From positions 1 to 64,000 of IMG/VR virus record IMGVR_UViG_3300017761_005873: DNA of 64,000 bases. One strand, given 5' to 3'. This DNA comes from a virus. The notes beneath the pieces are model-generated. The model had not been told where the DNA came from. It searched no databases and worked only from the letters and a program-made list of their open reading frames with translations. A program made the position numbers and the translations under genes. Of the stretch, positions 1-49,191 are shown in pieces (position 1 is the stretch's first letter; each line of letters opens with the position of its first letter).

Positions 1-660
1 AACATTTACTGTACCTCCTGATACATTCACAGTACCACCTGTTACATTGATTGTACCACCTGAAACAGTAACAGTACCACCACTTGGTAAATTGACTGAA
101 CCACCGCTAGAAACAATAACTGAACCACTAAATCCTGAAAGATTTATATTTCCACCACCACCAATAACAACTGTTCCTCCTGATTGATTAACAGAACCTC
201 CTGATTGATTAACAGTACCACCACTTCCAACATTGATTGTACCACCTGATTGATTAACAGTTCCACCACTTGTAACATTTACAGTACCGCCTGAAACACT
301 TACAGTACCACCACTTGGTAAATTAACACTACCACCACTACTAACAATTACTGAACCACTATAGCCTGAAAGATTAATATTTCCACCACCACCAATAACA
401 ACTGTTCCTCCTGATTGATTAACAGAACCTCCTGAAATATTTACAGTACCACCTGAAACAGTTACAGTTCCACCACTTGGTAAATTAACTGAACCACCAC
501 TACTAACAATTACTGAACCACTATAACCTGAAAGATTAACTGAACCACCACTAGTAATAATAACTGTTCCTCCTGAAATATTTAAATTACTACCGCTAGG
601 TAAATTAATACTACCACCGCTACTAACAATTACTGAACCACTATATCCTGAAAAACTAAT
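1..660 (-). repeat. Coding Gly/Ser/Val-rich short repeats (SGGTVNV, SGGSVNL) with near-exact DNA duplications
   Basis: For example tccaccaccaccaataacaactgttcctcctgattgattaacagaacctcctga occurs at ~151 and ~382. Confidence 0.8.
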
Positions 661-1989
661 TGTATTACCTGGTGTTAAAATATTTACAGTTCCACCATCT
701 CTTGATTGTACTGTAGTTCCTGTAGTATCAACATAAACAGAACCTCCACTAGTATTAACAGTACCACCACCACTTATAACTATTGTTGGTGTTCTATCAA
801 TTATTACGAATCCTTGACTATCAACAGCCAATGGATATAAAGTAGTCCCCGAAGGAACTGTTTTAATATTTAATCTATCGACATATGTTGTATTTGCTGA
901 ATAACCTTGGATATTTGCACCTAATACTATTGTATTTAATGAGTGTGCTGTACTGCTATTACCATGAACAAAACTATATTGTCCTATTGTAGTTGAACTA
1001 AAACCACCTGCATGTGAACTTCTACCACTAGCTATTGTATTTTCACCTTCAGAATGTGAATATTGTCCTAATGTTGATGTATATCCACCTTCAGAATGTG
1101 AACTTCTACCACTAGCTATTGTATTTTCACCTTCAGCATGTGAATAATTACCAATTGCTCTTGTTTGATATCCTTCAGCATGTGAACCTTGCCCATATGT
1201 TATAGTATTTTCACCTTCAGAATGTGAATACTGTGTTACTGCTGTTGTTACATATCCTTCAGCATGTGAATATTGTCCATATGTTATTGTTTCTCCACCT
1301 TCAGCATGTGAAGATATATTACTTGCTATTGTTCTATATCCTTCAGCATGTGAATAATTACCAATTGCTCTTGTTTGATATCCTTCAGCATGTGAACCTT
1401 GCCCATATGTTATAGTATTTTGCCCTTCAGCATGTGAATACTGTGTTACTGCTGTTGTTACATATCCTTCAGCATGTGAATATTGTCCATATGTTATTGT
1501 TTCTCCACCTTCAGCATGTGAACTTACACCGTTTGCAATTGTACCTCCACCTTCAGCGTGTGAATATGCCCCATTTGCTTCCGTATATGTTCCTTCGGAA
1601 TGGGAATTATCACCATATGCTCTTGTATAATTTCCTTCAGAATGAGAATCATTACCAATAGCAAATGTATAATAACCTTCAGCATGTGAAGCGTAGCCAC
1701 TAGCAATTGCTCCCCTACCTTCAGCATGTGCATAAGATGCATTAGTTGTTGCTGATGTTCTATAACCTTCGGCATGTGAATATGGACCACATGCTCTTGT
1801 TTCAAAACCAATTTCAGTTGCAGTTGAATTACAAGGTGGGTCTGATTGTGTGCTATATACACCTGATTGACCTAGTGTTACCCCTGATGGGCCACCAACA
1901 TAAATTGTTGTTGCTGTTATTGCACCTACAAATTTTATTCCACCGCCTTCTATTGTGGATTGTATATTATTAACTTTAAGAGTACTCAT
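1..1989 (-). CDS. Tail fibre/adhesin-like protein, partial (runs off window start): 14-aa SHAEG (YadA/Hep_Hag head-like) repeats followed by Gly-rich SGG(T/S)VNV repeats
   Basis: Not in ORF track. ATG at 1989 gives MSTLKVNNIQSTIEGGGIKF..., with repeated SHAEG/SHSEG at ~42-nt spacing (~1000-1790), then SGGTVNV/SGGSVIV repeats to position 1. ACTATTTAA motif upstream. Confidence 0.8.
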   Translation of the reverse strand, partial: MSTLKVNNIQSTIEGGGIKFVGAITATTIYVGGPSGVTLGQSGVYSTQSDPPCNSTATEIGFETRACGPYSHAEGYRTSATTNASYAHAEGRGAIASGYASHAEGYYTFAIGNDSHSEGNYTRAYGDNSHSEGTYTEANGAYSHAEGGGTIANGVSSHAEGGETITYGQYSHAEGYVTTAVTQYSHAEGQNTITYGQGSHAEGYQTRAIGNYSHAEGYRTIASNISSHAEGGETITYGQYSHAEGYVTTAVTQYSHSEGENTITYGQGSHAEGYQTRAIGNYSHAEGENTIASGRSSHSEGGYTSTLGQYSHSEGENTIASGRSSHAGGFSSTTIGQYSFVHGNSSTAHSLNTIVLGANIQGYSANTTYVDRLNIKTVPSGTTLYPLAVDSQGFVIIDRTPTIVISGGGTVNTSGGSVYVDTTGTTVQSRDGGTVNILTPGNTISFSGYSGSVIVSSGGSINLPSGSNLNISGGTVIITSGGSVNLSGYSGSVIVSSGGSVNLPSGGTVTVSGGTVNISGGSVNQSGGTVVIGGGGNINLSGYSGSVIVSSGGSVNLPSGGTVSVSGGTVNVTSGGTVNQSGGTINVGSGGTVNQSGGSVNQSGGTVVIGGGGNINLSGFSGSVIVSSGGSVNLPSGGTVTVSGGTINVTGGTVNVSGGTVNV
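1131..1522 (-). repeat. Near-identical direct duplication (210-bp offset, 5 x 42-bp units) in the SHAEG array
   Basis: 1131-1312 and 1341-1522 match except for a few substitutions (tcaccttcagaat vs tgcccttcagcat). Confidence 0.9.
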
Positions 1990-2840: not shown

Positions 2841-5800
2841 TTATTTAAGTTTTCTAAAACCGTATTTATTAGAGAAGTAATTATAGTTCTTTTTAATTTC
2901 AGGGAATGGTAAATCAATGTCATACATTCTAAGTCTTTGTATTTTTCCATAAAATGAGCCATCAAAATTTTCTTCAATAACAGATTTAATTCCTTTATTA
3001 TATAATATTTCAGTACTGATGGTATATGAAGTTGTACCTGTTAATTGAATTACATCATATTCACGGAATGAAATATCATCAAAATAAAAATTATAATAAG
3101 ATGTTATATTTTGTGAATTTTTGAATTTAACAACAGGTGTATAAGATGTATATCCAGTTATTCCACTTGGTGTTACAAAGTCAATTGATAAGTAAGTCCA
3201 TGTATTTGCAGAACTACTTGTATTGTAAGTTGTACTTGTTAATAATTCAATTTCAGAACTTAATGGATTTGTAAAATCAAAATAAATTCCTTTTTCTGTA
3301 TTTAGATTATATCCATTGTTATCATAGAAATATCCTTCCAAAACATATCTTTTATTTGGTTTTATTTCTAATGCATTTTCAAAAATTAATAGATTATTTG
3401 TTAATGAACTAAATGTTGTTGCAGTAGATGATGAAATAGAATTAGGAATTGGATTAAATTCAGTAAAGCTATAATTATCAATATAAAATTTATAATTTTT
3501 TGTTATTGCAGTAGTGTTTCCTGCTTTTATTACAGGTGTATAAACCGTGTAAGATGATAATACCCCAGGGGTTGTAAACTCAATACTTAAATCAACCCAA
3601 GTATTTGATGAAATAGTATTATTATATGTGATTGATGTTAAAATAACATTTTCACTTGACAATGTAGGTTCAAAATCAAAATAAATACTTTTTGATTGAC
3701 CACTTAAATAACTATTATCATCATAGAATTTAGTTGATAATTTGTATTTTTTACTAGGATTAATATTTATATCTTCAAATTTAAATATATTATTAGTTAA
3801 AGATGAATATGTTAAACCTGTAACAATATCTTGTTCATATAATTTAAAATCATCAAACTTAAACCCATAAATTGATGGGAAACAGTCACCAAAATCAACT
3901 GTAGCACCTAATGTGTAAGCTGTTGAACCTGTAATTATTGAAGGTGTTTTAATTTCAGTTCTTAATGTATACCAAGTATTAAAAGAATCTGAACTTGTGT
4001 ATGCTGTTTTACCAAGAACTTCATTTTCAGTATTTAAATTCAAGAAATTTATTTCGACATACTTATATGTACTTACAAAACTAAAGAAATCATTAAATCT
4101 TGATTCAATTATGTAAACTTTACTTGAATTTATTGGTTTAGGGTTTGTAAATGTAAAAATTGTATTACTAGGTGAATTGAATGTATTACCTGTAAGGTCA
4201 GTATTTCTTACATTTAAAATAAATTTAGATGGATTACCAATTTCACTAAATGGTAATGTTTCTAATGTACCACCAAACAAATCAATTGTAATACCAGATG
4301 TAATACCACTAGTATGACCACTATTTTCAAATTGACCAAAATTAGCATCATTTATTGTTAATGTATTTGATGTATATTGAGTTATTACAAGCGATGGTAA
4401 TGCAAGTTTAAGTGAACTATTTCCTGAGAAATATTGTTCTGTAGATACTTTTAATAATGTATTTTTTGTTTCGCTTGATACATTTTCAATAGAAGATTCA
4501 AATGTCTTTGTATAACCTGTATTATATACATAACTAAATCCTGTTAAGGAAAGTACAGGTAGTAAATTATAATTTTCATTATAAATTTCATCAAAATAAA
4601 ACTTATAACTTTGATTTATTCCTGATGGGTTATCAACAAAAACATATGGTGTATATGATGTATTTCCTGTTATTTGAGTTGGGGTGTTAAATTCAATTTT
4701 TAAATTATTCCAAACATTAAAAGATGTTGTGGTTGTGTAAGTTAAAGAACTTACAATAGTATGTTCTGAATTTAATGGTGGTAAGAATCCAATATAAACA
4801 CCTTTTGTTTCACCTGTATTGTAACTATTATTATCATAGAATTTAGCATTTATAATATATTTTTTATTAACTTCAGGAGTTAAAGCTGATAATCTTAATA
4901 ATGAATTGGTTGTTGAACTAAATGTAAACGATGTAAATGGTGTTAAAGGGTAATTTGTAATTTTAAAATTATCAAAATAAAATTTGTAATTTGAACTTAT
5001 ACCACTTTTGTTATATAATTTTGCAATAGGAATGTAAGATGTTGAACCTGTTAATGCACTAGGTGTTGTAAATTCTAAAGATAAATCAACCCAAGTTTTA
5101 GAAGAAGTTGTTGTGGTATAAGTTAAAGAAGATATTATTATATTTTCAGAATTTAAACCACCTGAAATTTGTAAAATTACACCTTTATCTTGACCGCTTA
5201 TATAACTATTATCATCATAAAATTGAGTATTAAGTATATATTTAGTATTACTTGTTATTGTAAATGAACTAAATTTAACTAAAACATCTGTTGTTGATGA
5301 TAAAGTGAATGATGTATAAACATCGATTGTTGAGGATGAGACAAAAAAGTTATCAAAATGAAATCTATAGCCAAGATTATTTATTGTAAGTGATGTTACT
5401 GTTTTTGCACTAAGTGTACCACCTGTAAATACTAAAGTAGCTTTAGATGGTTCACTTAAATCATGTTCATGGTCAATACTTGTTGAAAATTTATATGTTG
5501 TATTACCTGTCATTACAGAAGGTGTTTTGAATAAATAACTTAATTTTGTCCAAGTATTTGATGATGTCGTAGATGTATATGTTTTAGCAGATAAAATAAT
5601 AATTTCAGGGTCTAATTTTGGTATAGTATCTAAATAAATACCTTTATTTGAACCTGTCCAAGTTTTTGCTATATTTTGTGTATATGCAGAAACTCTAGTT
5701 GTATTACCACTTAAATCTGTTATCGTATAACTAGTTGTCAGATATATAGTAGTGGATGTATAATCATATGCATAACCTTCATAATAATATTCTGTATTTG

Positions 5801-8800
5801 GTAATAATGTTACATTTTTCTTAAAATAAAATAAATTATTATCAATACTAAAAAATGGCGCATAACTGTTTTTTTGTGGATATGGAATAATTTTTAATCC
5901 ACTAGTTCCACTATAAGGTAATGAGTTATCATATGGGTCTAAACCAGCTGTATTATTATTTGCTAATTTATATTGAAAATTTACCAAGTTTTCAAAATCA
6001 AAAATTTGTCCTGTTGGTATACCATCTATTTCGCTAAAATCAGAAATCGGATTAAACGTATTAATTGTAAGTCCTGTTGTAATTGTAATTCCTGATGAAT
6101 TACCAAATAATTTTAATGATGTTGCACTTGTATAGTATTGATTTGAAAATTGTTCAGTACTTGATGTTAATATTGATGCATTAATTTCTGATGTAAATCC
6201 ACTTATACTGCCTTCAAAATTGTATAATATTGTACCACCCGAAACATATTTATATAATGTTTTAGTTGATGAGGTTGCTGCTGATAATATTAATGAACTT
6301 AATCCTGAAAATGTTTGAGCAGTTGTTGATGTTATTACAACATCTAAAATATCTGTTGTTACACCACTAATGCTAGTATCAAAATTAATATTGCTTGATG
6401 TATTAAAGAAATATGTATAACTTGTTGAATAACCTGATAGGTATGTTATTGAAACAATTGGGTCAAAAGGTTTTAATTTTAATGAGTAATTACCTGAATG
6501 TGTAAATGCTGTACTTGATGTAATAATTATATTAATAACATCACTTGTAACACCTGTTATATTATTTTCAAATGTTCCAATATCACCATTTAAGAAATAA
6601 TTTGTATTTCCTGAAACTTCATATTGTTCAAAAACAAAATCATCAAAATAAAATTCATAATTATTTGATATTCCTGTTGGATTAACAAATTTAATTAAAG
6701 GTAAGTAAGTTGTATTTCCTGTTAATATTGATGGTGTTAAAAATGATAATTCTAAATCAACCCATGTCTGAGCAGATGTTGTAGTTGTATATGTTAAAGA
6801 TGAGATGATTATATTTTCAGAATTTAATCCACCTGAAAATGTTAAATAAACACCTTTGGTTTGCCCTGAATTATAACTATTATCATCATAAAATTTACCC
6901 TTATAAACATATTTTCTATCAGGAATTATATTTACAGGATTAAATATTAATAAGTTATTTCCTGTTGCACTAAATGTAAATGCTGATGTTGAGACAACAG
7001 TTTGTAAAATACTAGGTGAATATTCAATTATTGAAATATCATCAAAATAAAACTTATAATTATTAACTAAATTAGATGTAAAATCAACTTTAACAGATGG
7101 TAAATAATTTGTAATTCCTGTAAATGCCGATGGAGTTATAAATTCTAATTTTAAATCAACCCATTTTCTTTTTTCAACCGTATCACCATATGTGATTGAC
7201 GAAATAATTGTATTTTCAGAATTTAATCCACCTTGGAAAGTTAAAAATACTGACTTGCTATTACCTGTAAAACTATTATCATCATAAAATTTAGCAGTAT
7301 AAACATATCTACTATTAGGATTAAATGTTATACCTGTTGTACCAAAAATTGGTGTTGGTAAAGTGTTAATTAATAATAAATTATTAGTATCTGATGTGTA
7401 TGATAATGTAGATGCGCTAGAATTACTTAATTTAAGAGTTGTTTCACATTGATATGGATGGTCAGCACTTATTTCAACTAAACCATTATAAACTTCAGTA
7501 ATAACATTTCCAACTTGATAAATATCATTTATTAAATTTGTACTTGCAGTAATTGTTGTTGATGATACTACTGTTGTTGGTAGTATATTCATTTTTAAAT
7601 ATGAATTATCATTTGTTAGTACAGTTGTAAATAAATTATAAACCACATCAGTAGTAACACCTGTTATTGTAGCATCAAGAGTATTTGTATCACCATATTC
7701 TATTTGATTTGTACCACCTGTTAATTGAACAGTATAAGCATCAAAAGTAAAACTATCAAAATATAATTCATAAAATCTTGTTCCTGATGTTAAATTTTGA
7801 ATTTTAACGGCAGGTGTATATGATGTTAAACCTGTGATTATTTGTGGTGTTTGAATTTCTAAACTTAAATCAATCCAATTTTGTGGTAAATCTTCTGTTG
7901 TTAAATATGTTGAGGAGGTAATTACTTTTATTTCTGAATCTATAGTTTCTAGAAAACCTAAATAAATTTGGTTAACATAACAATTAAAACTATCATTATC
8001 ATATAATTTTGTACTATAAATATATTTTGTATTTGATGTTAAGATAATAGGTTGTGTAAATTTCAATAAATTATTACTTATAGCACTAAAACTATAACCT
8101 GTATAATCTGTATATGTTAATAGTAATGAAGAACTTCCTGAATAAGCCTGTGTTAAACTGCTTGTTAGTAATGAACCTACTAAATCAGATGAAACATTAT
8201 TAATACTTGTTTCAAAAGTACCAAAATCACCATCATTAAATAATGTTTGCCCTGTTACTAAAGTATAACTATAACCGCTTAAATTTTGAAGACTGTATCC
8301 ACTTTGATAAATAAATTCTCTACCTGTAATAATATTTTCAGTTACTGTTGCTGATGAAATCGCATCAACAAATGAATGTTTTAATCCCCAAGTACCGCCT
8401 CCCCAATTTATTGTGAATGGTATACCAATTTGTTTATCAACATCAGTTTTTAAAGGTCTTAACCAAAAAAATTCTTCAAGATTATCTATTTCGTGAAATA
8501 GAACACCATTCACAAAAATTTTAAAATGACCATCTCTTCTTGGAATACAATCAACTAAACTATCATTATCAAAATCTTTAATTTTTTTACAATATCTAAA
8601 AGTAGTTACGATATTTGTCCAACCTGTTGTTTCAATTGGATTATCTGTTTTAATCTCTGTTGTAAATGCAGATGTTACTAAATATTTCAATGATATTGTT
8701 TTATCATTATTGAATTTTAAACCTACTGCATTATATTCTAAATCATCAATAAAATTATAATTATCATAACTTATTTTAGATGTATCATCATTTGAACCTG

Positions 8801-9332
8801 AAAATGCGACATTAAATTTATTTTCTGATTTTGTTCCTAAATATAAGAAGAATCCATCTTTAAATGAATTAATATTTTCAAATGTTTCATTATCAATATA
8901 TAACCAAGTATCTATTGAAAAACCATTCTCATTTCTATATTTTCCAAGTTGAAATGGTTTATCATATAATTTAATATATGTGCTTAAATATCCACCTGAT
9001 AAATCAAAAGAATTACCTTCTGTGGATGATGTGTAAAGTTGTATGTTTGGAAATGTAGTATTACCTTCTGAATCATTATAACCGATTCTATTGAAAACTA
9101 GATTTCTATCTTTTATTGAAAAAGATTTTGAATCTGTAAAAGATGTTGCAAGACCAAAATCGTACATTGTCTGTCCAAAACCTGTTAAAGTAAGGTTTGA
9201 CAGAACATAATTTTCCCAAAATGTTAAACTAGTTACAGAAAATCCTGCATTATTGTCGAATGACTTTATATTTGATATGTCGAAATCAAATATAATGTTA
9301 TCTTTAGTAAGTCCTGTATTATTGAATATCAT
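2841..9332 (-). CDS. 2163-aa virion protein: LamG/ConA-like domain interrupted by nine nested CBM4/9-like modules
   Basis: LamG elements FSIDTWLY, GWTNIVTTF, KIFVNG and C-terminal FYGKIQRLRMY...EIKKNYN. Nine Y/F-x-F-D-terminated beta-sandwich repeats lie between them. Confidence 0.75.
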   Translation of the reverse strand: MIFNNTGLTKDNIIFDFDISNIKSFDNNAGFSVTSLTFWENYVLSNLTLTGFGQTMYDFGLATSFTDSKSFSIKDRNLVFNRIGYNDSEGNTTFPNIQLYTSSTEGNSFDLSGGYLSTYIKLYDKPFQLGKYRNENGFSIDTWLYIDNETFENINSFKDGFFLYLGTKSENKFNVAFSGSNDDTSKISYDNYNFIDDLEYNAVGLKFNNDKTISLKYLVTSAFTTEIKTDNPIETTGWTNIVTTFRYCKKIKDFDNDSLVDCIPRRDGHFKIFVNGVLFHEIDNLEEFFWLRPLKTDVDKQIGIPFTINWGGGTWGLKHSFVDAISSATVTENIITGREFIYQSGYSLQNLSGYSYTLVTGQTLFNDGDFGTFETSINNVSSDLVGSLLTSSLTQAYSGSSSLLLTYTDYTGYSFSAISNNLLKFTQPIILTSNTKYIYSTKLYDNDSFNCYVNQIYLGFLETIDSEIKVITSSTYLTTEDLPQNWIDLSLEIQTPQIITGLTSYTPAVKIQNLTSGTRFYELYFDSFTFDAYTVQLTGGTNQIEYGDTNTLDATITGVTTDVVYNLFTTVLTNDNSYLKMNILPTTVVSSTTITASTNLINDIYQVGNVITEVYNGLVEISADHPYQCETTLKLSNSSASTLSYTSDTNNLLLINTLPTPIFGTTGITFNPNSRYVYTAKFYDDNSFTGNSKSVFLTFQGGLNSENTIISSITYGDTVEKRKWVDLKLEFITPSAFTGITNYLPSVKVDFTSNLVNNYKFYFDDISIIEYSPSILQTVVSTSAFTFSATGNNLLIFNPVNIIPDRKYVYKGKFYDDNSYNSGQTKGVYLTFSGGLNSENIIISSLTYTTTTSAQTWVDLELSFLTPSILTGNTTYLPLIKFVNPTGISNNYEFYFDDFVFEQYEVSGNTNYFLNGDIGTFENNITGVTSDVINIIITSSTAFTHSGNYSLKLKPFDPIVSITYLSGYSTSYTYFFNTSSNINFDTSISGVTTDILDVVITSTTAQTFSGLSSLILSAATSSTKTLYKYVSGGTILYNFEGSISGFTSEINASILTSSTEQFSNQYYTSATSLKLFGNSSGITITTGLTINTFNPISDFSEIDGIPTGQIFDFENLVNFQYKLANNNTAGLDPYDNSLPYSGTSGLKIIPYPQKNSYAPFFSIDNNLFYFKKNVTLLPNTEYYYEGYAYDYTSTTIYLTTSYTITDLSGNTTRVSAYTQNIAKTWTGSNKGIYLDTIPKLDPEIIILSAKTYTSTTSSNTWTKLSYLFKTPSVMTGNTTYKFSTSIDHEHDLSEPSKATLVFTGGTLSAKTVTSLTINNLGYRFHFDNFFVSSSTIDVYTSFTLSSTTDVLVKFSSFTITSNTKYILNTQFYDDNSYISGQDKGVILQISGGLNSENIIISSLTYTTTTSSKTWVDLSLEFTTPSALTGSTSYIPIAKLYNKSGISSNYKFYFDNFKITNYPLTPFTSFTFSSTTNSLLRLSALTPEVNKKYIINAKFYDNNSYNTGETKGVYIGFLPPLNSEHTIVSSLTYTTTTSFNVWNNLKIEFNTPTQITGNTSYTPYVFVDNPSGINQSYKFYFDEIYNENYNLLPVLSLTGFSYVYNTGYTKTFESSIENVSSETKNTLLKVSTEQYFSGNSSLKLALPSLVITQYTSNTLTINDANFGQFENSGHTSGITSGITIDLFGGTLETLPFSEIGNPSKFILNVRNTDLTGNTFNSPSNTIFTFTNPKPINSSKVYIIESRFNDFFSFVSTYKYVEINFLNLNTENEVLGKTAYTSSDSFNTWYTLRTEIKTPSIITGSTAYTLGATVDFGDCFPSIYGFKFDDFKLYEQDIVTGLTYSSLTNNIFKFEDININPSKKYKLSTKFYDDNSYLSGQSKSIYFDFEPTLSSENVILTSITYNNTISSNTWVDLSIEFTTPGVLSSYTVYTPVIKAGNTTAITKNYKFYIDNYSFTEFNPIPNSISSSTATTFSSLTNNLLIFENALEIKPNKRYVLEGYFYDNNGYNLNTEKGIYFDFTNPLSSEIELLTSTTYNTSSSANTWTYLSIDFVTPSGITGYTSYTPVVKFKNSQNITSYYNFYFDDISFREYDVIQLTGTTSYTISTEILYNKGIKSVIEENFDGSFYGKIQRLRMYDIDLPFPEIKKNYNYFSNKYGFRKLK

Positions 9333-9385: not shown

Positions 9386-11956
9386 TTAATTTTTAAATTC
9401 TATGAAAGAATTTCCATTTTCATCTTTATCAACCATAATGAGATAATCAGGATTAATTATATCACCATAAGCATGTTCAATGATAAGAATTTTATCAATA
9501 TCTTGTTTAACTTTATTCATTAAATTAATAAAATTCATTGCATTCCTTTCTGATAATTTTCCAAAAAGTTCATCAAGTAAAAGAATATTTGGTCTTGACC
9601 TATTATTCATAAATCTCAATGCAAGTCTAAGACAAATACAAGCAAATACTCTTTCCATCCCTGAACCTGAGATAACATTCTGAATAATTTCAGGAGTATC
9701 TTTCTTTGACATTTGAAAGAAAAGTTCATTATCAAAGAAAACATTAAAATCAATATCTTCTGTATATCCTTGAAGATACATATTTACTTTTGGGATTAGT
9801 TTCTTTAAAAGTGTGCTTGGAATACCCTCTCTATGAATACAATTTTGATATTCTTCTCTAATCAATTCTTGTCTTTGTTGTTCAAGATATTTCTCAATAG
9901 TGTTTTTATAATTTTCAATTTCATTTTTAGCAAAATCAATATTATATTTAAATTCATTAACTTTTTTTACATAAGACTCTTTTTCACTTTTAAATTCTTG
10001 AACTTTACTTTTATATGTCTCAATTTTAGTTTCAATTTTTTTATTTTCTTGAATATAAATAATATTTATATCATATTTTGAAAGTGTATCATTCCTTTGA
10101 GAAATCTTTAAATCAATATTTTCAATAAACATTGGAATATTATCATATTCCTGTTTGAATTTATTTCTTTTTTCTATTTCTTTAATTATAAGTTCAATCT
10201 TAGTAATCTTTTCTTTTACTTTAGTTATTGAAATACTTTCTTTTTTAATATCTTCTTCAAAATTAGTTATTAATAATTTTTTACTTTCAATAATTAATTC
10301 CTTATCTTTAATTTCCTCTTTATATTTATCAATATTTTTCTTAATTGATTTTATATCCAATTGATATTTATTTTTAAAGACTTCTTTTTTAATATCATCT
10401 TCAATTTTTTCAATATCTTGTTTTAGTTTATCAACTTTTACTTTAATTGCTGTTATTGCATCATCATCTTTTAAACGATTGCAACTTGGACAAACTTTGC
10501 TATCTTCTAATGAAGAAATTTGATTTTTAATCAAATCAATTTGTCTTTCTAAAGTTAATCTATCATTATCAATTTGGGAATCAATTTTACCTAAAGAAAG
10601 ATTTTCTTTATGAATATAACCATTTATAATACTAATATCATTTGTTATATTATTTATCTCTTTATTTAAATCCTTGATTTGGTCATTTTTAGAAATTAAC
10701 CAACCATTGAATGAATTTGATTTATCTTTTAATGAATTGTAAAGTTCTTCATCCAAAACAAACTTATTAAGTTCTTCAATTTGTTTTAAAAGGTCGATTT
10801 CTGACCTTTTCTTTTCTTCTTTATTATTAATAAGTTTATTAATTTCATCCTTAACTTTATTAATATCTAATTTAGACAATTCGGAATCAATTGGTTTTAA
10901 TGTTTTAATTGTATTTTCAACATGTGTTTCACCATTAGAAATTCTTTCATTTAAGACAGATATTTTATTTTTACTATCTTCAATATTTGTCTCATTTTCT
11001 TGAATTAAATTTTTTGCATCTTCAATTAATTGATTATATCTATCAACTGATATATTAAGTAATGATTCTTTTTTATATTCGTTCTTTTTATATGCTTTGA
11101 ATAGTTCAAGTTTCTTTTCAAAAATATCAAGACCAGTATCTCTAAGAATCGAATCTAAGAATTTAGCATGGTCGGTTGTTAAAATGTCATTTAATGTATC
11201 CGCATTAATTAATGATTTTGTAATAAATTCATCAAAATCACCAATTGAATGTTCAATTAATTTTTGTGTTTTAGACTTATCTTGTTCTGAAAGATTATTT
11301 TCATCAATTATTTCATTATTTGAGTCTAATTTATTGAAATAGGTTTTAGTTGAACATGATGTGATATCTGTGTGTGTTTTATCCCATTTTCTTTCAGTTC
11401 TTCTCCTAATGGCATAATCTTCACCATTAATTTCAACAATTAACTGAACTTCTGAATAATCTTTTTTGTTATTATTGTTGATAAATTTATTATCTCTGTT
11501 CTTCTCTTTTTTGAGAGTATCAAAGGTAGTACCATAAAGACCATATGTTATAGAATTTAAAATGTTTGAGTTATGTACTGCAATATTATTAGCATAATAT
11601 TCACCAATACCTTCAACTTGAATATCAACCAAGTCTTCATAGATATTAGGATTAAATAATATTGATTTGATAATTTCTAAACCATCCTTTGTTTGAAGTT
11701 TTATAAATCTCAATTCATTTCTGATTTCATTTAATGGTTTAAACAGTTTCAAATCTGTTCTAATAAGATGGTCTTTTGAAACTTTTATCGTTTTACCTGT
11801 TTCTGTTTCAATTGACCAAAATTCTGAATTTTTTGATGTTACATCATAAGCAAGTATTTTTGAATACCCACAAGGAGTCTCAACCTCAATATTTAATTCA
11901 GGAAGTAAATCTTTTAATATTTTAAGATTTTCAATTTTTATCTGTTTCTGTGTCAT
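9386..11956 (-). CDS. sbcC: SbcC/Rad50 (gp46-like) ATPase C-terminal fragment with N-terminal split-intein C-part (IntC)
   Basis: After ...NNIAVHN comes SNILNSITYGLYG (rest of Walker A helix), a long coiled coil, zinc hook CPSC, signature SGSGMER, Walker B ILLLDE and H-loop IIEH. Probable start ATG 11956 (track start 11980). Confidence 0.92.
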   Translation of the reverse strand: MTQKQIKIENLKILKDLLPELNIEVETPCGYSKILAYDVTSKNSEFWSIETETGKTIKVSKDHLIRTDLKLFKPLNEIRNELRFIKLQTKDGLEIIKSILFNPNIYEDLVDIQVEGIGEYYANNIAVHNSNILNSITYGLYGTTFDTLKKEKNRDNKFINNNNKKDYSEVQLIVEINGEDYAIRRRTERKWDKTHTDITSCSTKTYFNKLDSNNEIIDENNLSEQDKSKTQKLIEHSIGDFDEFITKSLINADTLNDILTTDHAKFLDSILRDTGLDIFEKKLELFKAYKKNEYKKESLLNISVDRYNQLIEDAKNLIQENETNIEDSKNKISVLNERISNGETHVENTIKTLKPIDSELSKLDINKVKDEINKLINNKEEKKRSEIDLLKQIEELNKFVLDEELYNSLKDKSNSFNGWLISKNDQIKDLNKEINNITNDISIINGYIHKENLSLGKIDSQIDNDRLTLERQIDLIKNQISSLEDSKVCPSCNRLKDDDAITAIKVKVDKLKQDIEKIEDDIKKEVFKNKYQLDIKSIKKNIDKYKEEIKDKELIIESKKLLITNFEEDIKKESISITKVKEKITKIELIIKEIEKRNKFKQEYDNIPMFIENIDLKISQRNDTLSKYDINIIYIQENKKIETKIETYKSKVQEFKSEKESYVKKVNEFKYNIDFAKNEIENYKNTIEKYLEQQRQELIREEYQNCIHREGIPSTLLKKLIPKVNMYLQGYTEDIDFNVFFDNELFFQMSKKDTPEIIQNVISGSGMERVFACICLRLALRFMNNRSRPNILLLDELFGKLSERNAMNFINLMNKVKQDIDKILIIEHAYGDIINPDYLIMVDKDENGNSFIEFKN
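11570..11956 (-). other. Split intein C-fragment (IntC, ~129 aa, no endonuclease)
   Basis: Block B-like KTIKVSKDHLI, block F LVDIQVEG-GEYYAN and terminal His-Asn followed by Ser+1. Confidence 0.92.
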
Positions 11957-12506
11957 ATTCAAGTAATGGAAAAATTTCAATAATATTATTTACCCTGTTA
12001 TTATAATTTTCATGTTTATTCTCAGGGTCAAAAAGAATAATTTTAGTATTTTTAAATTCTAATTCTGATAATTTAGGATTAGCACTTAGAATATAATCGA
12101 AATCTTCATCAACATATTCTACAAACTTATTGTAGAACCTAATCTCATCAAAATAAAATGATGCTGAAAAATTTGATATATAAAATGCTGTTAAACTTCT
12201 CATTTTAACACCCTCTCTTGATAGTATAATAATCCTATAGTTATTTTCAGATAATTCAGGATAAATTTGATTTATTTGTGCAATAATTTCTTTTGAAGGT
12301 AATGTTGATTTAGCAAATAATTCATACGAATATTGAAATATAAAATCTTCTAATTCATCATTTTCAAAATGAAATGAAAGTAATGGATTAAATGGGTCGA
12401 TTGGATAACCTATTGACCTATCAGCAAATTCAATTTTATAAAATTGTTCAAATTTTTTTATAAAATCTCTTAGAATTCCGTTTACTTCAATGGCAAATGT
12501 TTTCAT
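11931..12506 (-). CDS. HAD-superfamily 5'(3')-nucleotidase-like protein with degenerate motif I
   Basis: FAIEVNGILRDF resembles IAIDxDGVLxD. RIIILSRE is a motif II-like strand. Confidence 0.5.
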   Translation of the reverse strand: MKTFAIEVNGILRDFIKKFEQFYKIEFADRSIGYPIDPFNPLLSFHFENDELEDFIFQYSYELFAKSTLPSKEIIAQINQIYPELSENNYRIIILSREGVKMRSLTAFYISNFSASFYFDEIRFYNKFVEYVDEDFDYILSANPKLSELEFKNTKIILFDPENKHENYNNRVNNIIEIFPLLEYDTETDKN

Positions 12507-15955: not shown

Positions 15956-17293
15956 TTATTTTAAAAATTCAGGTAAATAACCTAGTTTACTTATTATTTC
16001 TTCTTCATTAAATCTAATGTTGATTTTAGTTTCAGGATGAACACATTTACCAACCTGATTCTCGCCATAGATTTGAATAATTCCATTTTTATCACTTAAA
16101 TCAAGTTCATATCGTTCTCCATGTGATTTGAAATTATCAAGAACAATCTTTTTAACTTTCCAATCGTAAAATTGATTCTCTATATCCTTTTCAATTAATG
16201 AACTAATTTCATTATCAAGACTTAAAACATCTTTAATAAAGTCTTCATTATGATTCTTTGCTTTTAGAAAATTAATGAATTCTTGTCTTACACTATCATC
16301 ATTATTTAAATCAATAGTTTCATCAAATTCTTTAATCTTTAAAGATTTATTAAGAATCTTTGATTTATCAAATTTAATAGTGGTGAATTCACCATATTTA
16401 GAATCTAAATGTTTTTTAATCTTTTGTTTATTCTCAACAGTAAATGTTGAATATTGGTCCATCCAATGAATTTTAAGATGATTATATTTACCAACATTTG
16501 TAAGTTCAATATTTAGATTTTCGTAATCATAATCTTCGTTTATATAAACATTAAAATATTTATATTCCGAAAATATTTCTTTCTTTTCAAAAATCTTTGC
16601 TTCAATATCCCAAAGAAGATAACCGTGAAAAGCATTATCACCTTCACCATAATTTGTACAATATAGTGAGGATGGGTAAGCAAAAAATTCTTTACCATTT
16701 TTTTGATATGATTGTTGGAGATGTATATCTCCTGCCATTACAATATCACCTTTAAAATCAGCAAGAGAAACAATATTACTATCGGTATGGAGTTGTCCAT
16801 TTTGTAGATAACATCCATTAATAGGGTCATGGAAAAGGTCAATATAACATTTATTATTATCACGCTCTTCTTGATTGAACTCAAGCCAAGGGGATTTTCT
16901 GTCAGGATGATACCAAACAGCGAAAGTAATGTTATCAAGTTCAAAAAAACCTGTTGAGTCATAATAATGTATGTTTGGGTTATTAATAATCTCAACAAGC
17001 ATCTTAATTGATGACATTCTATTGAGATTTGATTTCATTATATCGTGATTCCCATCGATAATCACTACAGGTGCTATCATAGCACATGAGTTTAAGAAAT
17101 CACCTGCAAGAACATTAATTTCATTAAATGGTTTTACATAATTGTGAAAAAGGTCTCCTGCAATTACAATTAAATCAGGTTTATCATTTGTAAGTGATTC
17201 AATCGTTAAATTTGAGACATGTTTTTGCTCCGCTAGTCTATCCAAATTATTTTGAAAATGGACATCAGCAAGGTGGGCAATTTTTTTAATCAT
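15956..17293 (-). CDS. sbcD: SbcD/Mre11 (gp47-like) nuclease fused to the first ~39 aa of SbcC/Rad50 and a 29-aa split-intein N-part
   Basis: Phosphoesterase motifs HLADVH, AGDLFH, GNHD, LFH and GDIH, then WKVKKIVLDNFKSH...IYGENQVGK, then CVHPETKI... Confidence 0.92.
   Translation of the reverse strand: MIKKIAHLADVHFQNNLDRLAEQKHVSNLTIESLTNDKPDLIVIAGDLFHNYVKPFNEINVLAGDFLNSCAMIAPVVIIDGNHDIMKSNLNRMSSIKMLVEIINNPNIHYYDSTGFFELDNITFAVWYHPDRKSPWLEFNQEERDNNKCYIDLFHDPINGCYLQNGQLHTDSNIVSLADFKGDIVMAGDIHLQQSYQKNGKEFFAYPSSLYCTNYGEGDNAFHGYLLWDIEAKIFEKKEIFSEYKYFNVYINEDYDYENLNIELTNVGKYNHLKIHWMDQYSTFTVENKQKIKKHLDSKYGEFTTIKFDKSKILNKSLKIKEFDETIDLNNDDSVRQEFINFLKAKNHNEDFIKDVLSLDNEISSLIEKDIENQFYDWKVKKIVLDNFKSHGERYELDLSDKNGIIQIYGENQVGKCVHPETKINIRFNEEEIISKLGYLPEFLK
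15959..16045 (-). other. Split intein N-fragment (IntN, 29 aa)
   Basis: Block A CVHPETKINI begins immediately after the Walker A GK, and the ORF stops 29 aa later. Confidence 0.9.
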
Positions 17294-22423: not shown

Positions 22424-23046
22424 AAAAAATCTTTAAATTTATAATTTAATTTTTCTTTTATATTATTATAATTTAAATGACAATAATCATCAAAAAAATT
22501 CATTTTTGTTAAACCATTTTCATCAATTAAATCATTTATAATTGAAACAAACGGAATTTCATTATCAATGCATTTTTTTTCTAAAAGATTGTTCCAATAT
22601 AAACTTATTTTATTTCTAGTTAAACAATCACCAAATATAGGATTATTTGGGTCGCTATTGTGTCCACTTGTTGTTGATGGATGACCTCCCCAACCAATAA
22701 TATTATACCCCCTTTCTTTTAAATCTAAATAAACTCTAAAATATCTATCAATACATTCGGTTACAATTTCTTCATTTGTTTTATTTTGTATTGATGCTTG
22801 ATATGGTAAATGCCATCTACAATCAACCTCACCGATTGCTAAAACAATATAATCTTTTTCTTGATTAATATTCAAACCATTAATCCAATTTAACATTGTT
22901 AAATAATGATGCTCATAAAAATTATATGCAATAGTTGGACCTAATGAAACAGATGTAAAATCATCGTTTTGATTACCTAAACCAGATGTTGCAGGATGTG
23001 TATTTGTAAACACATGTGCATGACTATTACCAAAAACAAAAATCAT
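22420..23046 (-). CDS. SGNH/GDSL hydrolase-like protein
   Basis: VFGNSH, GEVDCR and DDYCHLN motifs. Confidence 0.7.
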   Translation of the reverse strand: MIFVFGNSHAHVFTNTHPATSGLGNQNDDFTSVSLGPTIAYNFYEHHYLTMLNWINGLNINQEKDYIVLAIGEVDCRWHLPYQASIQNKTNEEIVTECIDRYFRVYLDLKERGYNIIGWGGHPSTTSGHNSDPNNPIFGDCLTRNKISLYWNNLLEKKCIDNEIPFVSIINDLIDENGLTKMNFFDDYCHLNYNNIKEKLNYKFKDFL

Positions 23047-35742: not shown

Positions 35743-37725
35743 TTAATTTGTCACTCTAAATTTCACATAATTTGTATTAGGATATTGAACACCATTTTTA
35801 TCTAATGCTCTCATTTCTATTGTGTAATCGTGAGCAATAAACCAAGAAAAATCAACTTCTGTAAAATATTCATTATTAACTTTTGATGCTTTAGTATATG
35901 GTATCACATCAATTTGATTCTTGCCCTGATTAACAAAAATTCTAAATTCAATATCACCAATAATGCTTTTTAAAATCTTTGTTTCAATTAGTCTTTTTGC
36001 TTTAAAAACTAATCTTTTTACACCTGATTTTTTTGTAATTGATTCACTTGATTTAATACCCAATACATTTATATATACTTCAGTACCATATGTTAGACTA
36101 GTACCATCATTTAGATTTTCTTTAGATATATTGAATTCTTTTTCAAGAATTTTAATTTTACCATTTTGTGTATAATACCATTTAGCATAAAATATTTCTA
36201 CATCTTCATATGTTTCAGAATCAATTGTAGTTGTATATTTATAATTATAACCATTTAATGGTGTAAATCCTGATGTAACATTTAATATTGTTTGTTCATA
36301 ATAATCAACTATTTCTAATCTATCCAATGATGTGATTGGTGTTTGAGATACAAAAAAGAAATCATTTGGTGTATCAAAAATTAAACAACATGTTTCATCA
36401 TTTACTCTATCATCATATAAAGTTTCTAAAAATGGTTCAAAAAATGTTTGTGTATATTTTGAAAAGAATGTTACTACATTCTTACTTACTGCTGTTAATG
36501 TTTCTGTATTTGCCGAATATACGATTGCAATACCATTATTTGGATTTCCTGAAAATAATATACCATTTACATAATCAGTTATATCAACTTCAATATCTTC
36601 ATTACCAATTTCAAATCTTTGAGAACTTATGATTGATAAATTTGTTGCTCCTGTTGTATATGTATATGATGTTTCAACTTTTGTTGAAAAATCAAAATTA
36701 TCAAAGAAAAAATTATAATTATCTGTTATTCCACTTGTTCCATCAATTTTTAAAGACAGAGTATATGATGTATTACCTGTAAAACCACTTGGAACTGTAA
36801 ATTTATATTCTAAATTATTCCAAACACCTGAATTAAATGCTGATGTATATTCAATAGTAGAATTCAATATAATACCTGAATCTAAACTAGGTGATACATC
36901 AAGATAAATATGTTTATAATCACAAGTATAACTACTTAAATCAAATATTTTTCCTGTAATATAATAACTTGTATTTGCACTTGTATTTGCTGATATTGTT
37001 ATTGGTGTTGTAAATGTAAAAAGTGTGTTTGTTGGTGAATAAAATGAATAATTTAATGGGTCAGTATTTGATAGTTGTAATGAATTTAATCCTGAATACT
37101 TATAAAGTGTTGATGATGTTAAAATACTATTAGTGGTATCACTTGTGATACCTGTTATATTTAATTCAAAAGTACCAAAATCACCATCAATTATTTGATT
37201 TGATGTATTACCTGTTGTAAGACCTGTAACACTAATAATATCATCAATATAATTAGTATCATTTAAAAAAATACCAGGTTGAAACCAACTAACTTGAGGG
37301 TTTTTTCTGTTATACCAATTAGCTGCTGATTTATTTAAATCAATTTCTCTAAATTGTCTATCATTGTAGACATAATCATAACCTGTACCTTCGTCAAATT
37401 CTTCACTTAAATTAATGAATGCTAAATCAAAACCACTTGCTCTTTTTGATGTAATAAAATCAACACCAACTAAATCATCATTCATTGAAATACAATTCTT
37501 AATTTTTAAAAAATGTGATTTAATTGTATGTTCATTTAACGTATTGCTTGATATTTTTTGTTTTAATTTATCTAGGTCTATATTAAAAACATAGCGACTT
37601 ATTATAGTGGTTGCACTTGTCTCACCACCACCATAAGTAAGTTCAATAATAGGATTTCTTGAATTGTTTGAAAACGAATTCTTTATTAGAATTGCTTGTT
37701 TTTTAAAGTAAGACCTGAATATCAT
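35743..37725 (-). CDS. Virion structural protein with one inserted CBM-like module
   Basis: FDEGTGYDY, ANWYNR, QRFEIGNEDIEVDITDYVN and FFSKYTQTFFEPFLE motifs. Insert 36690-37200 is homologous to the repeats of the 2163-aa protein. Confidence 0.65.
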   Translation of the reverse strand: MIFRSYFKKQAILIKNSFSNNSRNPIIELTYGGGETSATTIISRYVFNIDLDKLKQKISSNTLNEHTIKSHFLKIKNCISMNDDLVGVDFITSKRASGFDLAFINLSEEFDEGTGYDYVYNDRQFREIDLNKSAANWYNRKNPQVSWFQPGIFLNDTNYIDDIISVTGLTTGNTSNQIIDGDFGTFELNITGITSDTTNSILTSSTLYKYSGLNSLQLSNTDPLNYSFYSPTNTLFTFTTPITISANTSANTSYYITGKIFDLSSYTCDYKHIYLDVSPSLDSGIILNSTIEYTSAFNSGVWNNLEYKFTVPSGFTGNTSYTLSLKIDGTSGITDNYNFFFDNFDFSTKVETSYTYTTGATNLSIISSQRFEIGNEDIEVDITDYVNGILFSGNPNNGIAIVYSANTETLTAVSKNVVTFFSKYTQTFFEPFLETLYDDRVNDETCCLIFDTPNDFFFVSQTPITSLDRLEIVDYYEQTILNVTSGFTPLNGYNYKYTTTIDSETYEDVEIFYAKWYYTQNGKIKILEKEFNISKENLNDGTSLTYGTEVYINVLGIKSSESITKKSGVKRLVFKAKRLIETKILKSIIGDIEFRIFVNQGKNQIDVIPYTKASKVNNEYFTEVDFSWFIAHDYTIEMRALDKNGVQYPNTNYVKFRVTN

Positions 37726-48224: not shown

Positions 48225-48485
48225 TTAAATAGACTTATAACCTGCTGCTCTTTCTTTTTCCTGTAATAGTTTCTTATTTTTTTCAAAAATAATATTTATT
48301 ATTTTTTTACGAAAATAAGTTGGTATCATGTACATTACATCATAGTATGAATAATTATTTTCAACAAGAAAATTAATCTCTTGCGCTATTAATTCCTCAT
48401 ACCTTGGCTCTTGGATAAAAAAAGTCAATACCGAAGGTAATCTTACTACGAAAAAAGTCACCTGTGAATTTCCCTTCAAATTCAT
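48225..48485 (-). CDS. gp51-like tail/baseplate assembly protein, possibly expressed as a frameshift extension of 48397-49191
   Basis: QEINFLVENNYSYYDVMYMIPTYFRKKII resembles T4 gp51/GT-type chaperone C-parts. Overlaps the upstream ORF by 89 nt. Confidence 0.55.
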   Translation of the reverse strand: MNLKGNSQVTFFVVRLPSVLTFFIQEPRYEELIAQEINFLVENNYSYYDVMYMIPTYFRKKIINIIFEKNKKLLQEKERAAGYKSI

Positions 48486-49191
48486 AATTATAATTTAAAC
48501 CAGGTTCTACATCAAGTATATATGTTCTTAAATCTAATGCATCTTTTGGTGGCATTAGTTTAACAAACTTTTCAATAAATGTTCTATCAGTTTCACCTGC
48601 TATTGTTTCTATTTGTGTAATAATTCTTTCCTGCATATCAAAAATTGGTGAACCATTTTTATATTTTGCAAGTTTTTCAATTCTTTGGTCTAATTTCTTT
48701 TTTTCACCATGTGTTAACAATTTGAATGTCACATCTGTCTTACAAATTGGTAAGTGAAAACTATATGTGTTATCAGGACCTGTTGGTTGTATAATTTCTT
48801 TATACCCCATTTTTGATAAATCAATGGTGGTTTCAAACATTTGACCATTTGTATCACGAACTTGTACAGGATATTCTTCACCATATGCAAATCTTCTTAA
48901 AAATAGAAGTACAGCATCTAAATCACCTGTTAACAACTCTTCAATTGACATTGTTGAATTAAATTCAGGGTCTTTAATTTTATTTTTTGCTAGTAGTTCA
49001 AAACCTGTACCATTTTTGATATAGTTTTCAGATAAAAGATATTGTTCATCTGATGCAGTCATATACTCTACCATGACTTTATCAATACCTGATTCATAAA
49101 ATAGACCTTGTGATGGGAAATCAACATAGTCAGATACAACTTTTGGAAGCAAACTATCAAGTTTTGCTTTTGAATTTGAAACATTTTCCAT
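48397..49191 (-). CDS. T4 gp26-like baseplate hub/tail assembly chaperone
   Basis: FPSQGLFY, YMTASDE, LLTGDLDAVLLFLRRFAYG, FKLLT and terminal GIDFFYP motifs. Confidence 0.7.
   Translation of the reverse strand: MENVSNSKAKLDSLLPKVVSDYVDFPSQGLFYESGIDKVMVEYMTASDEQYLLSENYIKNGTGFELLAKNKIKDPEFNSTMSIEELLTGDLDAVLLFLRRFAYGEEYPVQVRDTNGQMFETTIDLSKMGYKEIIQPTGPDNTYSFHLPICKTDVTFKLLTHGEKKKLDQRIEKLAKYKNGSPIFDMQERIITQIETIAGETDRTFIEKFVKLMPPKDALDLRTYILDVEPGLNYNYEFEGKFTGDFFRSKITFGIDFFYPRAKV

Follow-up and report, generated by a model that had tools for sequence, protein, structure and literature searches.

A large phage protein with nested CBM-type modules inside a LamG/ConA-like domain: a probable single-chain tree

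We analysed a 64,000-nt window from a large uncultured phage (IMG/VR record IMGVR_UViG_3300017761_005873; assembly of 129,260 bases). An open reading frame at 2841..9332 (stop codon 2841-2843), on the minus strand like every feature described below, encodes a protein of 2163 aa, P0001, and the repeat-bearing stretch at 3058-8245 corresponds to aa 363-2092 within this single frame. Searched as a whole protein, P0001 had no Pfam match and no match among PDB sequences at E ≤ 10, and a PHROGs search returned no functional name. Twelve full-length orthologues on separate contigs (69-89% identity, 2145-2164 aa) share its architecture, none of them interrupted, and an uninterrupted frame of 2149 aa is also kept in three further IMG/VR contigs.

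The two ends of P0001 correspond to parts of a LamG/ConA-like domain. Two insert-less homologues, L014 and L025 (415 aa each), aligned to P0001 by blastp (E 1e-46 to 1e-56) in two blocks, residues 6/7-342 with aa 10/11-321 and residues 363-408 with aa 2118-2163; between the two blocks, from aa 321 to aa 2118, ~1,800 residues of P0001 are unmatched. Together with Pfam searches of the insert-less homologues and a structure model, these alignments delimit an N-terminal host part (~aa 1-340; 8313..9332) and a C-terminal host part (~aa 2093-2163; 2844..3056) lying ~1,750 residues apart. Pfam Laminin_G_3 scored 29.5 bits on L025 and 27.4 bits on L014 (cut-off 27.6) and did not match P0001 itself; another homologue, P0039, carries a precomputed PF13385 annotation. 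P0019, a homologue with a single module, was modelled with AlphaFold (39 sequences, mean pLDDT 74.9; about 90 for the C-terminal piece); on this model, single ConA-like domains aligned over ~200 residues with Z 15-18, spanning residue 7 to residues 612-624. One of them, an arabinanase domain of 206 aa, superposed on P0019 residues 7-612 through 198 residues, with rmsd 2.9 and Z 17.8. Since these alignments bridge the insert, the modelled host domain of P0019 is closed around it, as a two-sheet jelly roll that includes the last strands. The module array is therefore itself inserted in a LamG-like domain, one level beyond what the preliminary description had proposed. At the root of P0001 we place a lectin-fold domain of the LamG/ConA-like kind, whose last strands are split off by an insert of nine modules.

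The module in this insert, ~170 aa long and present nine times, would be a jelly roll of the CBM4/9/16/22 type, its opening strands supplied by an N-half and all others by a C-half. A C-half HMM derived from P0001 itself detected nine copies of ~122 aa (E 1e-10 to 1e-54), at aa 411-533, 641-771, 783-904, 1156-1300, 1340-1461, 1467-1588, 1714-1834, 1838-1959 and 1970-2092; the C-half positions given in the preliminary description are those of their end motifs. C1 (7725..8102, aa 411-536, E 6e-49) is contiguous with the first N-half as part of module M1, C2 (7008..7412, aa 641-775, E 3e-49) belongs to M3, and C3 (6618..6995, aa 780-905, E 1e-54) is the proposed outer C-half of M2. C4 (5325..5873, aa 1154-1336), the C-half of M7, was delimited from two HMM pieces and alignment; it carries two insertions, which is why it is detected in pieces and truly ends at ~aa 1336. 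C5 (4944..5324, aa 1337-1463, E 5e-51) and C6 (4563..4943, aa 1464-1590, E 4e-51) are the proposed partners of N6 and N5, C7 (3825..4196, aa 1713-1836, E 1e-43) belongs to M9, and C8 (3447..3824, aa 1837-1962, E 5e-50) and C9 (3051..3434, aa 1967-2094, E 2e-51) are the proposed partners of N8 and N4.

N-halves are shorter (~45 aa), and HMMs built from orthologues and the wider family detected seven of them in P0001 at E ≤ 1e-11 (aa 365, 541, 588, 910, 973, 1029 and 1600). N1 (8103..8252, aa 361-410, E 7e-17) belongs to the leaf module M1. N2 (7575..7724, aa 537-586, E 2e-12), the proposed outer N-half of M2, is atypical and lacks the S-G-x-x-S-L-x-L end, and N3 (7413..7574, aa 587-640, E 7e-12), of the leaf M3, is divergent. 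N4 (6453..6617, aa 906-960, E 8e-21) would be the outer N-half of M4, the largest nest; N5 (6273..6440, aa 965-1020, E 2e-15), N6 (6093..6263, aa 1024-1080, E 7e-12) and N8 (4389..4559, aa 1592-1648, E 9e-18) belong to M5, M6 and M8. N7 (5874..6050, aa 1095-1153), of the deepest leaf M7, was placed by motifs and position: no N-half HMM matched P0001 there (~aa 1107), and seven of the 14 orthologues matched at the corresponding place (E ≤ 7e-10). It is the least conserved segment among the orthologues (mean pairwise identity 0.40). N9 (4197..4370, aa 1655-1712), of the leaf M9, matched weakly (aa 1660, E 5e-3), and at the same place in all 14 orthologues at E 2e-3 to 5e-2. A short strand motif, T-G-x-[TS]-[YF], is found repeatedly where modules and C-halves begin and where the chain re-enters the host domain.

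As a control for chance matches, the half HMMs were run on 200 shuffled copies of P0001, which gave three N and three C matches at E ≤ 1e-3 and 94 N matches at E ≤ 0.05. N9 is therefore not significant by score alone; it was called from its place directly upstream of a C-half and its N-x-N-F-G-x-F-E start. The composition of P0001 is rich in S, T and N, which inflates weak HMM matches. This composition and the chance N matches would also suit a decaying or mis-assembled repeat gene that maintains no structure, as would two truncated relatives, P0038 and a 500-aa ORF in L010. The conserved length and architecture of the 12 full-length orthologues, free of stops at 69-89% identity, and the three additional intact frames argue against decay, which we regard as very improbable.

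Along P0001 the halves run N C, N N C C, N N N N C C C N N C C C. The nine N- and nine C-halves claimed in this order by the preliminary description were recovered, all nine C-halves and seven N-halves solidly, and its reservation about two or three N-halves was borne out by the weak N9 and by N7, detected in orthologues only. Its 9 + 9 balance in a count by separate half HMMs holds only after manual merging and two weak calls: scanned automatically, 14 of the 14 large proteins were unbalanced, with 7-9 N against 10 C, because C4 gives two matches and N7 and N9 are missed. Among proteins of up to 1190 aa, 21 of 24 were balanced in the automated scan, and all six distinct architectures, together with the insert-less form, can be written as balanced words.

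The order of the halves in P0001 implies nesting four modules deep. Written as a tree it would read LamG[ M1, M2[M3], M4[ M5[M6[M7]], M8[M9] ] ], with five levels including the LamG domain; M1, M3, M7 and M9 would be contiguous leaf modules, and the other five would each be split at one fixed N/C loop by one or two whole modules. By the order of the halves, the split of the LamG-like domain and the insertions and deletions among relatives, guests lie wholly inside the sequence gap of a host domain, over and over, the arrangement of recursive domain insertion. Any insertion of an N+C unit at a half boundary keeps the word balanced, so balance records history and is no test of pairing.

Close relatives carry 0, 1, 2, 3 or 4 modules. 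They are 83-90% identical in their shared parts, and what sets them apart is a single block (186, 197-199, 383 or 577-583 aa) made up of one, two or three complete N+C modules and located at the N/C junction. P0039 (603 aa, one module) and P0015 (989 aa) share 519 of 603 residues and differ by one 383-aa gap, which amounts to two whole modules and opens directly behind the N-half; the comparison of P0039 with P0014 (1190 aa) shows 530 of 603 identical residues and one gap of 577 aa. The gap is 583 aa for P0040 and P0041, P0037 is without one 186-aa module, and P0030 and P0033 are without a module of 197-199 aa that in P0014 and P0028 is located inside module 2. Furthermore, in the proteins of 603-606 aa a single unbroken module, 84-88% identical, joins what are the outer N-half and the last C-half in the 989- and 1190-aa proteins. 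These comparisons strongly support a history of whole-module gain and loss at one fixed site, the N/C junction, as read from sequence. Of the repeated whole-domain insertion at one site, up to four levels deep, put forward in the preliminary description, the insertions and deletions among relatives and the order of halves support the history, and the pairing of separated halves is what we infer.

A contiguous N+C unit is predicted from modelling to be one CBM-like sandwich. In one-module proteins the module HMM spans both halves, and Foldseek searches with the P0019 model returned whole CBM22, CBM16 and CBM4 domains at probability 1.0 and target-normalised TM 0.50-0.65, matched range in the model not given; whole CBM domains matched a stretch of ~170-180 columns of this model. 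By Atlas features, module 1 was nearest to CBM_4_9 clusters (score 0.95, 25 of 30 matches), with 159-161 shared features, fewer than the 170 that members of one family usually share. A weak Pfam CBM_4_9_1 match paired residues 69-175 of a module with positions 60-145 of the 148-position profile, leaving its first ~45 positions to the N-half. The G-x-F-E start of the N-half resembles the usual start of CBM_4_9 domains. No significant CBM-family sequence match was found among 12 contiguous modules, two of which matched PF22637 at E 0.033-0.096 (cut-off 27 bits). The CBM_4_9, CBM22 and CBM16 domains of glycoside hydrolases are beta jelly rolls of ~150-170 aa, a fold that the P0001 module would share, and they stand singly or as tandem beads beside enzymes, whereas the P0001 modules are nested.

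For the separated halves, we modelled aa 534-908 of P0001, the N N C C segment, with AlphaFold (12 sequences, mean pLDDT 53). The expectation of the preliminary description that the outer halves would pair around the inner domain was not borne out in this low-confidence model: the outer N-half N2 was unplaced (pLDDT 24-30), and the outer C-half alone formed a small jelly roll resembling a lactococcal phage receptor-binding head (Z 7.4), which suggests that a C-half might fold without its N-half. The late part of N3 together with C2 matched CBM22 in a VIA alignment of this model (Z 7.0-7.4, 117-119 residues), in the chance-level range of best scores.

Co-evolution across the five separated pairs was not significant: with orthologue distance vectors, 9/120 and 16/120 permutations were equal or higher, and with similarity profiles against 14 contiguous reference modules 37/120 were. 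A Mantel test over all nine pairs was marginal (26,024 and 16,089 of 362,880 permutations, p ~0.07 and 0.04), its signal partly driven by the contiguous pairs; r was 0.45-0.59 for nested pairing versus ~0 for sequential pairing. Among orthologues, separated N-halves are as well conserved as C-halves (0.77-0.81 versus 0.77-0.85), a constraint in keeping with the tree reading. Counting against it, the very atypical N2 would be paired with C3, which is closer to the consensus than any other C-half.

These results bear on a reading in which N- and C-halves fold independently and N+C units were copied into a tolerant linker, the brackets being a fossil of duplication and the chain consisting of small N units and C jelly rolls in a row, its distant segments unpaired. 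Such a copying history would guarantee balance, and it agrees with the unplaced N2, with an outer C-half that folds alone like a complete ~110-aa receptor-binding head in the low-confidence model, and with the missing co-evolution signal. It is countered by the size of the N-half, as a stable beta domain needs more than 45 aa, whereas the whole N+C unit is the size of CBM4, CBM16 and CBM22 and whole CBM domains match the P0019 model. The match of late N3 and C2 to whole CBM22 domains, direct in the low-confidence model, the tolerance of true domain insertion by the LamG host, whose last strands are integral to its fold, and the identity that outer halves still retain to the contiguous one-module form also speak against independent folding, which we judge unlikely.

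Alternatively, the halves could pair sequentially, promiscuously among the nine copies, or between chains by domain swapping. Cross-pairing is conceivable as all halves are homologous (20-57% identity) and the separated pairs give no partner-specific signal, and many phage fibres are trimers. Four N-halves, however, directly abut a C-half, as in the one-module proteins, so that the innermost pairs are given and, beyond them, no order but the nested one pairs the halves without crossing chains; the one-module form joins the outer N-half to the last C-half, not the first, and sequential order finds no correlation in the Mantel test. We hold pairing of this other kind to be improbable. Each separated N-half of P0001 putatively closes a sandwich with its bracket partner, and the protein as a whole is probably a single-chain tree of beta-sandwich domains, with a LamG/ConA-like root and nested CBM-type modules.

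P0001 appears to be a rare extreme of a known mode of protein building. In an ECOD-based survey, the A1-B-A2 architecture occurs in 20% of multidomain proteins, nested cases being a minority, and 65.8% of insertion events join different homology groups (PMC13114784); in contrast to this majority, host and guest in P0001 would be of the same family five times over. The closest precedent is Si3 of the cyanobacterial RNA polymerase beta' subunit, described there as a 6-level recursive insertion of eight domains, sandwich-barrel hybrid motifs (SBHM), with relatives that have fewer copies, arranged in a simple tandem (PMC13114784). On that description, both cases have one small beta fold recursively inserted and the whole set placed as an insert in a host element. 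They differ in fold (SBHM of ~80 aa versus a CBM-type jelly roll of ~170 aa in LamG) and in setting, a core enzyme versus an accessory or structural-looking phage protein. The Si3 structure is solved, as one elongated body, whereas for P0001 the pairing is what we infer. Unlike Si3 as described there, the P0001 tree would branch, with three children in LamG and two in M4, and individual insertions or deletions can be seen directly among relatives that are 83-90% identical and have 0-4 copies.

Among phages, CBM-type BppA-like modules are found inserted in tail proteins, 'evolved' Dit among them, of siphophages that infect Gram-positive bacteria, and some CBM-bearing siphophage tail proteins have been shown to bind host cells (PMC6669499). 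As in P0001, CBM-type modules are there inserted into a host domain of a phage protein, and the only Pfam hint for the P0001-type module is the BppA-derived model PF22637, far below threshold (E 0.03-0.1). In those proteins insertion has one level with one or two modules, none inside another, whereas the modules of P0001 are nested, and the host domain there is the galectin-like Dit rather than LamG.

A six-frame search of the window with the module HMM found a tenth, contiguous N+C copy at 36682..37197 (E 1e-40) within an unrelated 660-aa ORF (35743-37725), and the 129,260-base assembly holds no further copy. The window also contains baseplate-hub-like ORFs. The LamG gene of L025 lies directly beside a baseplate-hub gene, with a virion-structural-protein gene ~1 kb downstream; that of L014 adjoins a tail-spike-like gene and has a baseplate-hub homologue ~2.5 kb downstream. 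In BFVD, the model has neighbours annotated as LamG-like, CenC-like, baseplate wedge or minor tail proteins. P0001 is putatively associated with the tail or baseplate and would bind glycans on the host surface multivalently, its leaf modules serving as putative specificity tips, the deepest the most variable among orthologues.

More tentatively, and as a possibility that we do not favour, the module may be a self-propagating loop-insertion cassette that places copies in a single fixed loop of its fellow modules and enters other phage proteins, as with the tenth copy, building a branched single-chain tree adhesin; its copying may be guided by the T-G-x-[TS]-[YF] motif. If so, the four leaves would be exchangeable host-range tips, and the phage would have a multivalent receptor binder that needs no oligomerisation and can evolve by single insertions and deletions.

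The 2163-aa ORF on the minus strand at 2841-9332 (P0001), which contains the nested array (3058-8245), was scanned with HMMs of each half of the module, the C-half HMM having been grown from a single copy. Nine C-halves (C1-C9) were matched at E 1e-10 to 1e-54, and seven N-halves at E ≤ 1e-11; N9 reached an E of only 5e-3, and no N-half HMM matched N7. Shuffle controls (200 shuffled copies) gave three N and three C matches at E ≤ 1e-3 and 94 N matches at E ≤ 0.05, counts that place the strong half calls far above chance, and N9 not on score alone. N9 was matched, weakly, in all 14 orthologues, and N7 at the equivalent position in seven of them (E ≤ 7e-10), which carry the more canonical of two very different alleles, the other seven having a divergent one. 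N7 (5874-6050, minus) is the least conserved segment of P0001, with a mean pairwise identity of 0.40, and the deepest leaf (a contiguous module) is the most variable part among orthologues. The order of halves and their coordinates in the preliminary description were correct, giving the bracket form ()(())(((()))(())); its count of nine N- and nine C-halves stands for the C-halves and for seven strong N-halves, with N9 weak and N7 unmatched in P0001 itself. Self-BLAST of the whole protein returned nothing beyond the identity match, and the self-comparison was made with fragment BLAST and the HMMs instead.

In an automated half scan, 21 of 24 small proteins were balanced, the other three being explained by spurious weak partial N matches (P0041, P0029) or truncation (P0038). 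All 14 large proteins appeared unbalanced (7-9 N and 10 C), because C4, which is interrupted by two insertions and truly ends near aa 1336, gives two matches, and because N7 and N9 are missed. A partial C-HMM match (aa 2095-2129) was rejected as a further, tenth copy of the C-half: the matched stretch belongs to the C-terminal strand region of the LamG-like host domain, and the relatives P0015 and P0018 give the same match. Conservation among orthologues was similar for separated N-halves (0.77-0.81) and C-halves (0.77-0.85), which argues for folded parts of domains. Within 2841-9332 (minus), boundaries of three types share a short strand motif, approximately [LV]-[ST]-G-x-[TS]-x-[YF] or T-[SG]-x-T-[FY]: it precedes modules (before N1, N2, N4, N5, N6 and N8), opens C-halves (C1 and C5-C9) and stands where the chain re-enters the LamG host (after C9). 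Judged from sequence, this motif might mark structural register, or provide microhomology guiding in-register insertion.

Sequence methods gave the module no family name in Pfam or among PDB sequences: Pfam yielded nothing useful on P0001, and the module profile retrieved 0 matches from PDB sequences. PHROGs assigned P0001 only to phrog_12678, a family of unknown function. A profile of contiguous N+C modules retrieved 13 proteins among 1.84 billion representatives, the last three of which (P0024, P0025 and P0026, E 5e-5 to 9e-4) are probably unrelated and were left out of family counts, as were P0002 (identical to P0001), P0016 (a fragment or chimera) and P0021 (a 97-aa fragment). No match was found by tblastn against 50,697 phage records, and two IMG/VR scans returned only three contigs, all with the same 2149-aa orthologue. 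Structural comparison of the predicted model of a one-module relative (P0019) by Foldseek returned whole CBM16, CBM22 and CBM4 domains at TM 0.50-0.65 normalised to the target, and Atlas features placed module 1 nearest to CBM_4_9 clusters (score 0.95, 25/30 matches, 159-161 shared features). Weak PF22637 matches align residues 69-175 of the module with positions 60-145 of the 148-position profile, so the N-half would supply the first ~45 positions. These results point to a predicted jelly-roll of the CBM4/9/16/22 group, as a lead rather than a membership. A tenth, contiguous copy (E 1e-40) lies at 36682-37197 (minus) and spans residues ~178-351 of a 660-aa ORF (35743-37725) that is elsewhere unrelated and has a 661-aa orthologue, P0017; this points to movement of the module from one protein to another. 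The 447-aa P0016 fuses large-protein C-halves to an end resembling the one in the tenth-module protein, after which comes an unrelated tail.

Both ends of P0001, ~340 N-terminal and ~70 C-terminal residues, are conserved in all relatives. A metagenome scan with an alignment of these ends yielded 182 relatives, with 80 loci kept, where most ORFs have 560-720 aa and one ~170-aa insert; a wide-family HMM matched most P0001 C-halves (E 1e-8 to 1e-14), and therefore this insert is the same module. The proteins of two loci, L014 and L025, have 415 aa and no insert, and align to P0001 as two segments (their residues 6/7-342 with aa 10/11-321, and 363-408 with aa 2118-2163); Pfam Laminin_G_3 scored them at 27.4 and 29.5 bits, with a cut-off of 27.6. 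We folded P0019 rather than P0018 (786 aa, N-N-C-C), because the MAFFT alignment of the latter spread single modules of distant relatives over its outer N-, inner C- and outer C-half and would feed a false pairing signal. The AlphaFold model of P0019 (39 sequences) had a mean pLDDT of 74.9 and a pTM of 0.62, with a pLDDT of about 90 for its C-terminal piece. Single ConA-like lectin domains superposed on it by VIA-align at Z 15-18 (about 200 residues, rmsd ~2.8-3.5, spanning model positions 7 to 612-624). At least in this predicted structure, a LamG-like sandwich is closed around the insert.

Searches for relatives yielded proteins of 581-1190 aa with the half orders (), (()), ((())), (()()) and ((())()); no forms with a module number between 4 and 9 were found at searched lengths of 543 to 3786 aa. 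Pairwise global alignments revealed that the one-module P0039 (603 aa) shares 519/603 identical residues with P0015 (989 aa) across one 383-aa gap, which comprises two whole modules directly after the N-half, and 530/603 with P0014 (1190 aa) across one 577-aa gap; P0040 and P0041 were 84-86% identical to P0014, with one 583-aa gap. Single modules also differ: P0037 lacks one 186-aa module of P0014 (826/959 identical), P0030 lacks 199 aa of P0014, split as 117 + 82 (891/991 identical), and P0033 lacks 197 aa of P0028 (779/983 identical), the 197- and 199-aa blocks being a whole module located between the two halves of module 2. Large proteins thus have as many as 583 residues between the outer N-half and the last C-half, which directly adjoin in near-identical small proteins. 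The proposal that whole modules were inserted at one site is borne out by these differences at the junction of N- and C-half, and an insertion history of whole modules, in which each step may be an insertion or a deletion alike, is well supported. At one metagenome locus (L010:8001-9503), a gene resembling P0001 breaks off after 500 aa, with the similarity continuing beyond; P0038 has a frame change near its end.

Bracket balance shows history, not pairing, since insertion of an N+C unit at any half boundary keeps the word balanced. The preliminary description expected outer halves to pair into one sandwich around the inner domains; the AlphaFold model of aa 534-908, made with 11 orthologues (a shallow alignment), was of low confidence overall (mean pLDDT 53), with the outer N-half at 24-30. 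In this low-confidence model, late N3 with C2 resembles CBM22 at only Z 7.0-7.4, and the outer C-half alone resembles a phage receptor-binding head (Z 7.4). Mantel tests of N against C similarity gave r 0.45-0.59 for nested pairing (equalled or exceeded in 26,024 and 16,089 of 362,880 permutations) and r about 0 for sequential pairing. Distance vectors among orthologues were equalled or exceeded in 895-1,168 of 362,880 permutations for all nine pairs, and in 9/120 and 16/120 for the five separated pairs; similarity profiles against 14 reference modules gave 37/120. We found no one-to-one orthology between P0014 and P0001 halves, and the co-phylogeny, co-evolution and P0014/P0001 orthology tests held no usable partner signal for separated pairs. 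In our judgement, structural nesting in P0001 is likely rather than proven; P0001 would then be a LamG-rooted tree, LamG[ M1, M2[M3], M4[ M5[M6[M7]], M8[M9] ] ], of modules M1-M9.

The DNA has a G+C of ~25%, the assembly containing it comprises 129,260 bases, and P0001 orthologues occur on contigs up to 243 kb; the source is a large uncultured tailed phage. Its genes include a baseplate-hub-like ORF (phrog_150; 48397-49191, minus), a baseplate hub/tail lysozyme-like ORF (phrog_1922; 56196-57653, plus), a DnaB-like helicase, an SbcC-like nuclease subunit (9386-11980, minus) and metallophosphoesterases. The SbcC-like ORF and one metallophosphoesterase ORF (15956-17293, minus) each match part of the long phrog_35725, with several genes between them. 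Adjacent to P0001, an ORF that runs off the window (1-1989, minus; 663 aa visible) carries YadA-head repeats (Pfam E 2e-7; phrog_25468); its product is probably of fibre or adhesin-like type. A HAD-type hydrolase and nucleotidyltransferase fusion identified by Pfam (23043-24404, minus), set among several sugar-modifying genes in a row, may be of interest with regard to glycan metabolism in phages.

Synteny of the window neighbours with the metagenome loci is almost absent. In L025, the LamG gene has a baseplate-hub gene homologous to ORF 48397-49191 directly beside it and, about 1 kb downstream, a gene for a virion structural protein. The LamG gene of L014 adjoins a tail-spike-like gene, with a homologue of ORF 48397-49191 about 2.5 kb downstream. 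Among the BFVD neighbours of the P0019 model are proteins with the names baseplate wedge, minor tail, LamG-like and CenC-like. Gene context suggests that P0001 is a tail or baseplate accessory protein, and from fold class only, we infer that it may bind glycans multivalently.

To our knowledge, Si3 of cyanobacterial RNA polymerase is essentially the only well-studied example of a domain inserted recursively into its own copies. Of the eight SBHMs in Si3, four are assembled from segments far apart in the chain (PMC10895346), and an ECOD survey calls it a six-level recursion (PMC13114784); phage tail proteins with one-level CBM insertions are already known (PMC6669499). A full-text search of a limited literature collection found no paper on the P0001 family. 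This family would be a second, independent case of recursive self-insertion, with a different fold, branching and a lectin-like host domain wrapped around it. For annotation, it is a warning that tandem-repeat logic mis-segments nested proteins, the P0001 domains having been missed by Pfam. Unusually, individual steps of the process are preserved in close relatives, which have 0, 1, 2, 3, 4 and 9 modules. They open to direct testing how an entire tree of domains is accommodated within one loop of a beta sandwich, how nested-domain chains fold, and whether nesting is a phage means of tuning valency or host range.
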